From Promethearchaeota archaeon (GTDB lineage: Archaea > Asgardarchaeota > Lokiarchaeia > Sigyniarchaeales > SOKP01): 15,113 bases of DNA. Numbering within the stretch: position 1 is the stretch's first letter; each line of letters begins with the position of its first letter. Shown here piece by piece: positions 2,850 through 8,572 of the stretch. The translations under genes were made by a program, and so were the position numbers. Below the pieces are notes generated by a model. The model made no database searches and was not told the origin of the DNA. It worked only from the letters and a program-made list of their open reading frames with translations. The stretch spans positions 1 to 15,113 of the forward strand of contig SDNY01000089.1 of assembly GCA_004524535.1 (NCBI GenBank), given 5' to 3'.

Positions 2850-3679
2850 ATGGTACAAATTTCAGGCGACTGGGGATTCAGAAATCGCCTCAATAGGATA
2901 ATCAAGCCTAAATCTGGACGATGTGTGATGTTAGCAATAGATCACGGCTATTTTGGAAACGTGCCCGGTCAATTAAAATGTTTTGAAGAGATGTCACCCC
3001 TATTTAAGTATGCCGATGCCTTGATGTTAACACGGGGAATGTTGAGAAATTGTGTCCCCTCAGAGGTTGAGGCCCCTATAGTATTAAGAGTCTCAGCAGG
3101 AGCAAGTATGTTAAAAGAACTTTCTAATGAGGAAATCAATGTAGCTGTGGATGATGCCATTAGATTAAATGTTTCAGCAATAACATGCTCAATATTTGTT
3201 GGAGGAGAATATGAAAAACAATCTCTCATGAACTTATCGAAACTAGTAAATTGGGGTCAGCAATATGGCATTCCAACGTTAGCCGTGACAGCGGTAGGGC
3301 GTGAAATGGTGAGGGATGCTCGTTATTTAGGTATGGCAAGTAGAATGGCTGCTGAAATGGGAGCAACTTTCGTGAAAACATATTATTGCGAGAATTTTGA
3401 GGAAGTTACAAGTATCTGTCCTGCGCCAATTGTTATTGCTGGCGGTAAAAAAATTCCTGAAAAAGACGCTTTACAAATGGCGAAAAATGCCGTCGATAAA
3501 GGTGCTGTCGGCGTAGACTATAGCTATTTAGCTTAGTTATAGGCGCAAATATGGGAAGAAATATCTTTCAATCTGATAGCCCGATTGGCATGATAAAAGC
3601 TGTACGAAGAATAGTCCATGAGAATGTCTCGGCTGATGAAGCATTCGAAATTTACAAGAATGGTCCAAAAGGATTATAA
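2850..3679 (+). CDS. lsrF: LsrF/DhnA-family class I aldolase/thiolase, split by a 32-nt intron: join(2850..3516,3549..3679), 265 aa
   Basis: Motifs [26 protein letters not shown]. The track ORF stops at TAG 3534-3536, but the missing C-terminus [24 protein letters not shown]...GPKGL* follows at 3551-3679 in another frame. SD-like GAGGT at 2838-2842. Confidence 0.88.
3517..3548 (+). other. Putative archaeal BHB-type mRNA intron (32 nt)
   Basis: 4-bp central helix GCGU(3511-14)/GCGC(3543-46); 3-nt bulges AGA(3515-17) and AAA(3547-49); 9-bp intron stem CUAUAGCUA(3518-26)/UAGUUAUAG(3534-42) with a 7-nt loop. Cleavage after the 2nd base of each bulge gives GTA G|AT ATG = V-D-M. Confidence 0.85.
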
Positions 3680-3814: not shown

Positions 3815-4948
3815 ATGGAAAAAAATAAATATTCAGCAACAAAATTAATAGAAGATTTAAGGAGAGAAATTTTTAAAATAATTCCAACTAGTTTTTTCAT
3901 TAATAATCTTAAAGTAAAAATGATTCGAAATGGAATTCTATCTGATAAAAAGTTAAGCCTTATCCTATGTGGTTATGAAGGTCGCCTTAAAAGGATTAAA
4001 AGGAATATTAGAGCTAATCCAGATTTTAAAATAGCTCAAGATGAATTAATGGATTGGAGCAATAGTATTAATGATTACTTCGGTTCTAAGAGTGACAAGA
4101 TAATTAATTTTATTAAGCAATATCGAGAATTAAACGAAAATTTGCCGATATCCAGAAAAAAAGGATTAAAAGTTTTAAATTATCATCCTAAATTAAAATT
4201 AGATTTTTTTGAAATAATTAATACAAAAGAAAAAGCATATTGGCTAGGACTAATATGGGCAGAAATATACCTAGGGAAAAGAGGTGAAATAAGCCTTGAA
4301 TTAAATAATAAAGATGAAATTCTAATAGATAGATATTGTAAAACCTTAGGTTTAAACCCAAAATATAAAAAATACCAAGTAAAAATGAGAAAAAAAAGTC
4401 CAAGAACATATGTTAGAATTAGATTTAAAAGCAGTAAAATTCAAAAGGATCTATACAAATTAGGGTATATAAAAAGCAGTAAAAAGTCTACAATATTTCC
4501 TAAATTAGATATTCGAGAATTAGATTTAGCGTTTCTACTTGGATTTTTCGATGGTGACGGAAAGGAAGGTACAAATACACTTCATATAGGTAGTAGGAAA
4601 ATTCTTGAACACATTAAGGAAAAATTTAATGTTCCTCATGAAATTCTGCCTGATAAGAAAGGATATTATTACTTTAGTCTAGGTGGAAAATTATTTAATG
4701 AAATGATGACAAATTATAGAAATAGCCTAGAAAGAAAAAGAAGATTCTTTAGAGTTCCAATTAAAGAAAAATTAAAAGAACTAATCTCAAGAGAAAAACT
4801 TAGAGAATTAGTATGGAAATTAACCCTCAAGGAAATAGCTGAAAGATATAATGCTTACCCAAGAGCCATTTCTGAATTATGTATTGAGTGGGGGATAAAA
4901 AGACCTCCTACTCATTATTGGCATCAAAATTTAAGTGAGCAAAAATAG
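3815..4948 (+). CDS. Free-standing double-motif LAGLIDADG homing-endonuclease-like protein with C-terminal HTH
   Basis: Motif 1 AYWLGLIWAEI (degenerate), motif 2 AFLLGFFDGDG; very Lys/Arg-rich; HTH-like tail LTLKEIAERYNAYPRAISELCIEWGIKRP. No intein splice residues or host-protein fusion seen. Confidence 0.85.
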   Translation: MEKNKYSATKLIEDLRREIFKIIPTSFFINNLKVKMIRNGILSDKKLSLILCGYEGRLKRIKRNIRANPDFKIAQDELMDWSNSINDYFGSKSDKIINFIKQYRELNENLPISRKKGLKVLNYHPKLKLDFFEIINTKEKAYWLGLIWAEIYLGKRGEISLELNNKDEILIDRYCKTLGLNPKYKKYQVKMRKKSPRTYVRIRFKSSKIQKDLYKLGYIKSSKKSTIFPKLDIRELDLAFLLGFFDGDGKEGTNTLHIGSRKILEHIKEKFNVPHEILPDKKGYYYFSLGGKLFNEMMTNYRNSLERKRRFFRVPIKEKLKELISREKLRELVWKLTLKEIAERYNAYPRAISELCIEWGIKRPPTHYWHQNLSEQK

Positions 4949-4992: not shown

Positions 4993-5421
4993 TTACTTTT
5001 CAGATTCATTCCAATTTTTATATACAGATTTATGCTCATATTTTAAATAATGAATGATATCCAATATTCCACCAATAAATGACAATATACCAATTATAAT
5101 CCATATACTATCAGAAGTAAAGTAAAACAAGATTATGTATAAAAAATTGTAGAAAATCCCTATGAACCAAGGATTAAAAGAACCCATATATCTACCATAA
5201 GGTCGTATCCCTATATAAGAATAATAAATAGTTGTTCCATATACAAAGTAGAACATTATAATTACAATTAAGAAATACAGAGAATTTGACATTACGATAT
5301 AGTAGTAACCCCGAATTGTTATTAAAACTAACACTATTAGAAATAGAACACAAATAATATATGAAAATATTGTATTCCTTTCCTTTAAATCTCTTAATCT
5401 GATTGGTTTATTGTTTTTCAT
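4993..5421 (-). CDS. Hypothetical membrane protein (about 4 TM segments)
   Basis: 142-aa ORF with ATG start and four hydrophobic, Tyr/Ile-rich stretches; fills the gap convergent with the LAGLIDADG gene; no family recognised. Confidence 0.6.
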   Translation of the reverse strand: MKNNKPIRLRDLKERNTIFSYIICVLFLIVLVLITIRGYYYIVMSNSLYFLIVIIMFYFVYGTTIYYSYIGIRPYGRYMGSFNPWFIGIFYNFLYIILFYFTSDSIWIIIGILSFIGGILDIIHYLKYEHKSVYKNWNESEK

Positions 5422-5520
5422 TGAAAGTGGATTTTTAATTATGAAAAATTAATTCAAGAAAATTATTATTCTTATTTTTTTAATAAAATTATGTTTTTCA
5501 GAGTAATTATTGATTGGTAT

Positions 5521-5637
5521 ATTTTTCAATCAGATAAACCAATTGGAATGATTAAAGCTGTTAGAGCAATTGTGCATGAAAATGCTTCGGTGGATGAAGC
5601 TTACGAAATATATCAGAGTGGTCCAGTAGGATTGTGA
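5521..5637 (+). pseudogene. Orphan duplicate of the lsrF 3' end (38 codons + stop)
   Basis: Translates to [38 protein letters not shown], 30/38 aa identical to 3563-3679; similarity to lsrF stops at about 5519. Confidence 0.92.
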
Positions 5638-6847: not shown

Positions 6848-8572
6848 TCATTATCTTTCTATAAATCTTTAATTTATGATACTATTGAGATTTATATATA
6901 TTTATTTCTTAAATATAGAAAAAGCTGTTTATTATGGAGAAATTGAATAGATATAATCTTAATAAAATAAAAGAATTAGTTGAGGATTTGAGTATAAGGA
7001 AATCCGGAATAAAAGGTGTAATTTTAAATCCGAAAAATGAAGAAGAATTCAAAAATTTAAAAAATATTTCCGGTCAAATTCCAAGCAAAACTAAGATTAA
7101 AGTAAAATGTGGTGTTCCAGAACATCCGGCGTGGATAACAACAGCAGATCGCTTGCAACAAGGACATTGGTGTAAGGTTTGTGCGTATAATATTTTTACA
7201 TTTGAAAAAGCAAAAAAATTAGTTAAAAAACTTGGTCTCAAAAAATATGGAATTGAAGGACAAATAATTAAACCAGAAAATTCTTTAGAATTCATTAAAT
7301 TAACTGGAACATATCAACCTAGTTATGTACCATTGTTAGTCTCTTGCGGAATTTCAAATCACCAAAATTGGATCACAAATGGGAGAGCTTTATCTAGAGG
7401 TAATTGGTGTAGAGAATGTTATATAGAAAGTATGAAATTAACATTTAATGATATTAAGAATATAGTCAAGGATGCAGGTCGTAATAAAATTGGTAAAGAT
7501 GGTATTTTGCTTGAACCTATTAATCTGCAAGATTTTGAAAAACTAAAGATAGCTCCTAGTAAAATCCCTTTAAAGATTAAATGTGGAGTTCCAGAACATC
7601 CAGAATGGATTACTGATGCTTCCCATTTAATAAGAGGTAATTGGTGCAAATTTTGTGCTCAAAATATTTTTACTTATAAATCTATAAAGAATTTAGTAAA
7701 AGATGTTGGATTAAAAAAGTCTGGTGTAAAAGGACATCTTATTAAACCAAGATAGAATTTAAAAAAATAAATAAAAATATTAAACCTAGTGAAATTCAAT
7801 TATTAGTTAAATGTGGAATTGTGGATCATGGAACTTGGAATACAAATGCGCATCGATTACAACAAGGATATTGGTGTTCAGTTTGTTCTCAAGGTGAAAA
7901 TGAACAGATATGTCGTTGGTATTTTGAACAAATTTTTAATAAATCCTTTCCAAAAACTCAATTAAGTAAGGTAATTAGAATAGTAAATGAAAAAATGTAT
8001 AATGAAACAGAACTAGATATATTAAACAGATTAATTAAATATGGTCATTTTGATGGATATGCTGAATTAAAATTAAATAGAAAATCAATAAAATTAGCTT
8101 TTGAATATAATGGCCCTCAACATTATAGATTTCCCAATCATGTACATAAAACCAAGGAGAAATTCAATTATCAAAGATTTCTTGATCAAATGAAGCAAAA
8201 AGTATGTGATGCAGAAGAAAATAAAATAGTTCTAATAGTATTCCCGTTTTTTATTGACGAAAGGATGGATAATCCAGAAATTATTCAAAATTACATAGTA
8301 AAGGAATTCAATATTAAAACCGGTATCGATTTAGTCGATTTACCAAAATTTAATCATAAAACATACGTTTTTGGTCAATATAAGCTAGATAAATATCTCA
8401 AATGATAAATTTCTAAAAAATATTAATTGAATTTAGATAATTTTCATCCCATTTCAAAATCAATTATTACTTTTAATGAATTATCAGCATCACATACAGT
8501 ATTGAATGCTTCTTGTACTTTCTCAATTGAATAGCGATGGGATATTAAATTAACAATAGATAATTTCTTGGA
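6848..8572. mobile_element. Putative endonuclease cassette 2: replacement dehydrogenase 3' end + Zn-ribbon/Vsr-like nuclease gene
   Basis: Bounded by two diverged copies of the dehydrogenase 3' end (8444-8572 and 6719-6847), both starting with TCCAAGAAATT on the minus strand. The right boundary is uncertain. Confidence 0.62.
6934..8405 (+). pseudogene. Zn-ribbon-repeat protein with C-terminal Vsr/DUF559-like PD-(D/E)XK endonuclease domain, frameshifted near 7753
   Basis: Track ORFs 6934-7755 and 7821-8405 are one gene: four CGxxxHxxW...GxWCxxC repeats, then E(QICR)...FDGY...LAFEYNGPQHY...DQMKQKVC...LIVFPF. The second frame is open from 7755 (EFKKINKNIKPSEIQLLVKCG). Confidence 0.8.

Follow-up and report, generated by a model that had tools for sequence, protein, structure and literature searches.

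The lsrF gene of a Lokiarchaeia archaeon is split by a 32-nt insert whose sequence is best explained as a messenger RNA intron removed by the host splicing endonuclease EndA, and we regard this reading as very probable. The evidence leans towards a broader picture in which some Lokiarchaeia carry tens of EndA-spliced mRNA introns per genome, many of them in essential genes. These introns would have been acquired separately in different lineages, with a bias towards a stop in the unspliced frame, and would have spread at least partly by free-standing LAGLIDADG endonucleases, for which the intron provides immunity at the cut site. An earlier sequence-only reading of this DNA had proposed the lsrF intron; the present analysis extends it to some 25 introns in the same genome, three intron sites within lsrF in the family, and an adjoining homing-endonuclease cassette.

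The 32-nt insert in lsrF

The window, the whole stretch of DNA analysed, comprises 15,113 nt and is contig C16 of an assembly that we label G000 (3.66 Mb, 30% GC, 99% complete, in 198 contigs); it was compared with 134 genomes of the same Lokiarchaeia family, which carry labels of the same type. Exon 1 of lsrF (2850..3516, + strand; 222 codons plus 1 nt) encodes a class I aldolase/LsrF thiolase fold (Pfam DeoC) and is 87% identical to the orthologue in G032. That intronless orthologue exceeds the NF006081 LsrF cut-off of 297 bits, with a score of 397; the score belongs to the G032 protein, and the spliced G000 product would be LsrF by orthology. As the sequence-only reading had it, a 32-nt insert with an in-frame stop splits the gene: the unspliced frame ends at 3536 and yields 228 aa. 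Deletion of 3517–3548 (32 nt) joins exon 1 to exon 2 (3549..3679, +; MGRNIFQ... to the stop) with GVDMGRN across the junction, and gives a 265-aa LsrF; the intronless G008 orthologue is also 265 aa long, and is 98% identical across residues 1–222. Upstream of the gene, tandem EamA transporter duplicates (774–2717) are 70% identical across 734 nt.

The insert (site A; 3517..3548, +) shifts the frame, contains in-frame stops, and is predicted to form a bulge–helix–bulge (BHB) with the end of exon 1. The central 4-bp helix pairs GCGU on the exon strand (3511..3514, +) with GCGC on the intron strand (3543..3546, +), giving three Watson–Crick pairs and one G–U (G3511–U3514/G3543–C3546). Two bulges of 3 nt each lie 3' of the helix on their own strands—AGA at 3515..3517 (+), with a predicted cut after G3516, and AAA at 3547..3549 (+), with a predicted cut after A3548—and the inner stem (3518..3542, +) has 9 bp (3518–26/3534–42, one G–U) and a 7-nt loop. 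The coordinates given for helix, bulges, and stem in the sequence-only reading agree with both a check of the sequence and the centroid fold, which consists of exactly the central helix, 5' bulge, and inner stem, the outer helix being absent. Its further prediction, that cuts after the second nucleotide of each bulge restore the frame, is borne out by the 265-aa match to the intronless G008 allele. Its caveat that the outer helix is weak, and the motif a relaxed BHB, still stands: the outer helix (G3510–U3550; 3505–08/3551–54, C3509 bulged) can pair in 74 of 75 cells across 15 site A sequences, with zero covariation among them and with bases fixed by codons. Over its full length, the 71-nt segment does not exceed its shuffles in stability (z −1.12; 27/200 shuffles as good), and 0.05–0.2% of 2000 random coding draws pass the identical BHB test. 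The lsrF insert shows each BHB feature open to computation except a clear outer helix.

A DNA search of the 134 family genomes returned an lsrF match in 108; the best 30 loci and a second set of 29 loci were examined directly, and the remaining genomes were judged from the span of the match. An insert of 30 or 32 nt lies at the identical base in 13 of these 108 genomes (G000, G002, G005, G011, G022, G060, G064, G069, G105, G140, G145, G161, and G170), and also in some metagenome contigs. Across the 15 distinct site A sequences, 96.2% of 210 cells are paired, with two-sided changes at 7 of 14 pairs; none of 500 shuffles paired as highly and slid controls reached 25–45%, in a test whose shuffles ignore relatedness and whose structure is taken from the G000 sequence. 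Covariation of the stems, proposed in the sequence-only reading as a check, is seen as compensatory changes in both helices. The inner stem has two-sided changes at six of its nine pairs (94.8% of cells paired), and the central helix, with 98.3% of cells paired, has one pair with three compensatory types; the second base of the exon strand, the wobble position of a Gly codon, pairs with intron base 3545 as C–G in 10 sequences, U–A in three, and A–U in two (n = 15). The cut position is identical in all orthologous inserts, which supports the BHB-intron reading.

Relatives carry two further lsrF intron sites, one after the DHG motif (codon 33/34, 30 nt, five genomes) and one at AGG-KK (codon 200, 30 or 36 nt, three genomes), and every insert of at least 18 nt in 69 lsrF loci, some of them redundant, falls at one of the three sites and folds as a BHB. 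Locus L488 (G011) has three BHB introns within a single 800-nt lsrF and one more in LeuRS, and introns may be far more numerous in G011 than in G000. The L496 and L314 genes depart from the stop bias described below: their intron at lsrF site C is 30 nt long, keeps the frame, and contains no stop, and both additionally have a frameshifting site A intron. Pattern scans of large collections produced at least 240 loci, mostly chance matches, and 12 of the 240 listed are lsrF.

It is conceivable that a hairpin insertion simply inactivated lsrF and that its BHB shape is incidental. The in-frame stop and frameshift would be expected of a pseudogene, the intron is patchily distributed across the family, and three distant lsrF paralogues in G000 (27–31% identity) could cover the function. 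However, 13 genomes share the cut site, the two-sided covariation extends to the exon wobble base, and the only LeuRS and uS10 genes of G000 are interrupted by the same insert class. Exon 2 is also intact: over 33 codons its pN/pS is 0.138 in 13 intron-bearing alleles vs 0.138 in 25 intronless ones, some of the divergence perhaps being older than the intron. The exon appears to stay under purifying selection, a second point in favour of the BHB-intron reading, and we consider inactivation highly improbable. An assembly or sequencing artefact, for which the division of G000 into 198 contigs might speak, has a negligible probability, given that 12 other genomes, as well as metagenome contigs, have homologous but non-identical inserts at that very base. 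Because of this family-wide comparison of site A and the genome-wide class of inserts described below, both explanations are excluded for practical purposes.

A splicing endonuclease in the host, whose absence would have told against the sequence-only reading, is represented in G000 by two EndA paralogues above the TIGR00324 cut-off, alongside one copy of RtcB. One paralogue can be aligned over its full length to catalytic subunits of known structure, the VY...H...RKK region included; we take the Tyr, His, and Lys of this region to be the catalytic residues. Asgard EndA is described, in the available text of Kaneta 2018 (PMC5829648), as a two-subunit enzyme with a broad-specificity loop, of a type able to cut relaxed motifs. 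In the proposed mechanism, the 32-nt insert of the lsrF transcript would fold into a hairpin, and pairing between the final intron bases and the end of exon 1 would create the BHB. The two-subunit EndA would then cut after G3516 and A3548, and RtcB would ligate the exons to give full-length LsrF; unspliced messages would nearly always meet a stop within the intron. That the RNA is cleaved and ligated at lsrF is something we infer with high confidence.

A genome-wide class of short BHB inserts

A census free of any motif was made by aligning to G000 the ORFs found in 2.4 Mb, or roughly 64%, of the G032 genome, on a base of 564 pairs at ≥60% identity that comprise 481 kb of alignment. It returned 28 rows of G000 insertions of at least 9 nt, or 26 sites after two antisense duplicates were removed. 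At the boundary that restores the alignment, 12 of the 15 inserts of 29–33 nt pass the BHB test, vs none of the 11 inserts outside that length range (p = 5e-5). Of the three that failed, C26:5443, which passed a second scan, and C180:282, placed by eye, are weaker BHBs. The G032 side of the census holds 12 insertions, of which the single 31-nt one is a BHB; this amounts to one BHB insert in 515 kb of G032. That second scan compared BHB candidates with homologues, and at 15 loci the junction aligned without a gap. The resulting working list for G000 has 25 introns of 26–33 nt: 14 from the census, eight from the homologue scan, two supported by paralogues, and one whose removal gives back an SGGLDT motif in what we take to be argG (first intron base G000:C8:15447, −). 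Two inserts were left off, C26:33584 (29 nt), where there is no BHB, and C23:11774, which is in frame, lacks a stop, and has weak paralogue support alone. The 14 census sites in 481 kb scale to about 90 introns per genome; the estimate is kept at 25–90, since conserved genes were probably over-sampled.

The genes that carry these inserts were named by NCBIfam matches of their G032 orthologues. Hosts above the cut-off are LeuRS (first intron base G000:C185:15915, +), uS10 (G000:C135:24695, −), Sec61-beta (G000:C54:16227, −), CdhA (G000:C100:12033, −), CdhD (G000:C8:3086, −), acetate–CoA ligase, acetoacetate–CoA ligase, HdrB, a mutase B12 domain, and a small GTPase. Those below it are ACR3, the gamma subunit of a 2-oxoacid oxidoreductase, and an AAA ATPase, with two introns each, and an HMG-CoA synthase-like protein. 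LeuRS, uS10, CdhA, and CdhD each have a single locus in G000, and each is interrupted; the LeuRS insert is 29 nt long and shifts the frame, and G000 alone among 87 matched genomes has internal stops in uS10. Public sequencing runs were searched with the uS10 intron locus, chosen over lsrF for its higher expected expression, and no RNA run was among the matches, an outcome without bearing on expression. LeuRS and uS10 are indispensable to any cell, and their inserts must therefore be removed or skipped. The single LeuRS (G000:C185:14300-16791, C54:2-472) has a bacterial-type N-terminal part by NCBIfam and an archaeal-like C-terminus, and its end continues on the second contig with an overlapping, divergent stretch (residues 778–825).

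Relatives also carry such inserts. Three of 29 relatives examined have a BHB at a different LeuRS site (L206, L207, and L211, from G013, G028, and G011), near codon 89, with 29–31 nt, a TATG/CATA helix, and a weak inner stem; in cdhA, a 240-nt stretch has 30–34 or 60–63 extra bases in 14 of 109 relatives, judged by match spans only. The short-intron class appears from these sequences to be family-wide. Ab initio scans of G000 were less uniform in outcome. A frame-repair scan without an energy filter gave no excess (329 vs 290–318 in shifted-cut controls), and with an energy of ≤−7 and a strict helix it gave 19 vs 7 and 6; a sense vs antisense census gave 300 vs 190, and 32 vs 14 for A-rich bulges, which is modestly informative. 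Outside the homologue comparison, fold scans also found 12 strong candidates of 29–32 nt in G000 that are probably further introns: C56:20583 (+), C174:55724 (+), C174:2010 (−), C98:11146 (−), C32:3640 (+), C17:338 (−), C173:18392 (−), C100:23206 (+), C188:175 (+), C129:9460 (−), C126:25463 (+), and C195:3626 (+).

The 25 listed introns share a common build: a 3-nt bulge, a stem of about 9 bp, a short loop, a 4-nt helix strand matched to the host, and a 3' bulge led by A. The central helix forms 3.72 of 4 pairs with an intron's own exon vs 1.85 when exons are swapped, a fit that is partly due to how the set of 25 was selected; six of the 25, uS10 among them, have 3 of 4 central pairs only. The 3' bulge begins with A in all 25, and the scans applied no bulge filter. 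Outer pairing shows a modest excess (2.4 vs 1.76 of 4; p = 4e-4). An in-frame stop lies inside 23 of 25 introns; among those found without a stop filter the proportion is 20/22, and the two remaining frames give 29/50 (p = 9e-4). Selection thus seems to act against read-through that meets no stop. Two possible origins were considered and set aside. For one intron family copied around the genome, the best pairwise score was 19, vs 14–19 for shuffled sequences, and full-length second copies were absent from G000 and from the 2.4 Mb of G032; for tandem duplication of the flanking exon, there was no support outside the helix and bulge (p = 0.07, 0.15).

The only rescue of essential genes other than splicing is programmed ribosomal bypass, in which the ribosome jumps across the hairpin from one codon to a matching one and the RNA stays uncut, as known from T4 gene 60 and from yeast mitochondrial byp. 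The hairpins, nearby stops, and similar lengths of the inserts would suit such a mechanism; lsrF has GGC at 3510 and a second GGC exactly 32 nt further, and 14 of the 25 inserts have, at the required spacing, a codon that is identical or synonymous. The other 11, however, have no codon match, and the match in lsrF is lost in several orthologues (e.g., G022, G011, G105, and G069); no conserved pair of take-off and landing codons was found across the 25 inserts and the site A orthologues. Bypass would also turn the conserved Val-Asp of LsrF into variable residues, and it leaves unexplained the exon–intron covariation, the fixed 3-nt bulges, and the invariant A of the 3' bulge. We therefore judge bypass very unlikely. 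Splicing, in turn, would apply well beyond lsrF: because about two dozen BHB-shaped inserts were found, some of them in essential genes, it is very probable that many messenger RNAs of the G000 organism are spliced.

A LAGLIDADG cassette downstream of lsrF

Exon 2 of lsrF is followed by a free-standing gene of the LAGLIDADG family (3815..4948, +), whose 377-aa product has motifs at about residues 141–151 and 239–249. Many homologues of this protein carry PF14528; its own match is at 11 bits (cut-off 22.5) with an E of 0.43. The structural model has a pLDDT of 90.6, and its top Foldseek matches are LAGLIDADG structures, including I-SceI and I-DmoI; a single-sequence model was unusable (pLDDT 42.5), and a PDB sequence search with the nuclease returned nothing relevant. 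By its model, the protein has a LAGLIDADG fold with two motif helices and is a putative endonuclease. Also within the cassette is a hydrophobic ORF on the opposite strand (4993..5421, −; 142 aa) with no confident family. Further downstream lies what appears to be the displaced native 3' end of lsrF (5519..5637, +), starting about 12 nt past the intron insertion site. It is identical to the intronless G008 allele at 114 of 119 nt, and the exon 2 in use at 86 of 119 over the same span. This foreign exon 2 and the G008-like copy downstream of it indicate that the cassette brought the intron, a new 3' end, and the nuclease gene, and displaced the native lsrF end. The displaced copy in G060 starts at the intron site itself, and in G145 it holds the last 17 codons only, with a breakpoint further downstream.

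The nuclease gene lies directly downstream of lsrF in five of 13 intron-bearing genomes vs none of 34 others, a difference with p = 8e-4 if genomes are taken as independent, and of four to zero (p = 0.125) in independent tree pairs; it was not seen there in the other eight intron-bearing genomes, where two loci end early. The wider nuclease family is present in 48 of 134 genomes. A close subfamily (≥53% identity), sought in all 134, has six carrier genomes, and all six bear the intron; in one of them, G105, the gene sits on another contig, beside an lsrF 3' fragment. Because all six close-subfamily genomes carry the intron, collaborative homing suggests itself. The LAGLIDADG nuclease would cut intronless lsrF at or near the insertion site; repair would bring in the intron and a new 3' end, leaving the old 3' end downstream, and the intron would then shield the cut site from the nuclease. 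We consider it likely that the lsrF intron spread sideways in this way together with the LAGLIDADG gene, whose target site and role we infer. The claim is limited to the lsrF locus, and this nuclease is not a proven source of the whole intron class. A nuclease gene beside every intron was looked for and rejected, as 24 of the 25 G000 introns have no member of this family within 6 kb.

The spliced intron could instead be ancient and lost many times, the cassette being an unrelated neighbour that replaces 3' ends. Site A introns are homologous across five genera, most intron-bearing alleles have no nuclease gene nearby, the tree-corrected association of nuclease and intron is not significant, and related nucleases make 3' duplications elsewhere without introns. 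An exon-only lsrF tree of 46 genes, enriched for intron carriers and with two short metagenome rows left out, requires 10 changes for site A vs a mean of 10.6 for shuffled labels, and rejects site A as one clade (AU p = 3e-6). An ancient intron would thus need about 10 exact losses within this 46-gene sample; moreover, the close nuclease subfamily is confined to intron-bearing genomes, the displaced copy in G060 begins at the intron site, and the incoming 3' end in G000 is foreign. We regard an ancient intron with repeated loss as unlikely, though a serious alternative to lateral spread by homing.

Related elements occur elsewhere. Free-standing LAGLIDADG genes related to the lsrF nuclease lie in G000 at C26:41660-42883, C48:10757-12628, and C137:9386-9826, and also at L087:14801-16111, with duplications of 50–320 nt nearby; these four other cassettes of the family have such duplications and no BHB candidate of 26–34 nt. 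Stranded duplicate 3' ends follow the intron-bearing genes for acetoacetate–CoA ligase (two ends, G000:C74:8228-8118 and 6196-6068), ACR3 (C103:10635-10564), and HdrB (C162:15274-15321). There is no nuclease of the lsrF family near these ends, which are possible scars of other elements that replace 3' ends. Within the window, two adjoining ORFs (6934–8405) in the same frame, separated by a stop near 7755 and without a Pfam match, encode repeated Cys-x-His...W...HWCxxC units. The pair ends in FDG...LAFEYNG, which we take to be a nuclease-like motif, and is possibly a second, broken mobile endonuclease gene.

Relation to known introns and mobile elements

The BHB intron of cbf5 pre-mRNA, for which Watanabe 2002 is also cited, is the closest precedent, and by analogy the lsrF intron may work in the same way. 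In the available text of Yokobori 2009 (PMC2738675), the cbf5 intron of Desulfurococcales and Sulfolobales is, like that of lsrF, short, coding, and variable in its interior, with a relaxed BHB; a hetero-oligomeric EndA cuts it between the second and third bulge nucleotides, and the same cuts are predicted for lsrF. Unlike cbf5, a single gene with one ancestral gain and few losses by that account, G000 has about 25 such genes, and in this Lokiarchaeia family a gene can have several sites, the distribution is patchy, and a nuclease is linked. The sequence-only reading had singled out cbf5 as the established coding-mRNA example, and the literature searched likewise names cbf5 alone for coding BHB introns. 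The accessible text of Danan 2012 (PMC3326292) mentions cbf5 alone, and that of Schwarz 2020 (PMC7714728), on EndA processing of Haloferax HVO_1309 mRNA, gives cbf5 as the sole other mRNA example; the HVO_1309 substrate lies in the 5' UTR, whereas the lsrF intron is in coding sequence. In the accessible part of PMC12397907 the subject terms are present only among the references. A literature search, with most subscription journals outside its scope, did not find multiple BHB introns in Asgard coding genes.

The nearest case by organism is a preprint on non-canonical Asgard tRNA introns (bioRxiv 10.64898/2026.10.13.758758), the main text of which, in the portion available, does not contain 'mRNA' or 'cbf5'. 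The tRNA introns share with those described here the organism group, the BHB motif, and a two-subunit EndA of broad specificity, and in both cases there are repeated gains and no known route of arrival; however, they are reported from tRNA genes only, and the introns here lie in protein-coding genes.

Partner introns of phage collaborative homing are self-splicing group I introns; the lsrF insert is instead a 32-nt single-hairpin BHB on an archaeal chromosome. The arrangement itself, a free-standing endonuclease and an ORF-less intron co-acquired in a conserved gene, is that described in the available text of PMC10448857. For the replacement of 3' ends there are two fungal parallels, each as far as the accessible text goes. 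In the WHO elements of Torulaspora and Lachancea (Coughlan 2020, PMC7282813), a cassette supplies the target gene with a new 3' end while the old one stays downstream, as at lsrF, and the target, FBA1, is also an aldolase gene. WHO proteins, however, are intein–zinc-finger fusions and the lsrF nuclease is a plain LAGLIDADG protein, with no intein-like or zinc-finger Pfam match at E up to 1 and Foldseek matches to the LAGLIDADG part only; an intron sits at the lsrF breakpoint, and none is described at the WHO cut. Endonuclease insertions in fungal atp6 or rps3 (PMC4019555) similarly replace the 3' end of the target and leave the old end downstream.

What is new is the scale, with tens of introns per genome and essential genes among the hosts, together with the link to a LAGLIDADG cassette that replaces 3' ends. 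In the papers searched, as far as their text was available, coding introns in archaea have so far been treated as a one-gene exception, that of cbf5. If the reading advanced here is true, it would amount to a spliceosome-free proliferation of introns in the protein genes of a prokaryote, within the archaeal group closest to eukaryotes, and EndA and RtcB would form a general mRNA-splicing system in this Asgard lineage. Gene calls, pathway reconstructions, and marker-gene sets would then hold false pseudogenes and truncated proteins. The lsrF cassette also offers a testable route for the spread of introns, which the available text of the 2026 preprint on Asgard tRNA introns calls the central open problem, and the reading bears on whether cells tolerated intron-split genes before the spliceosome existed.
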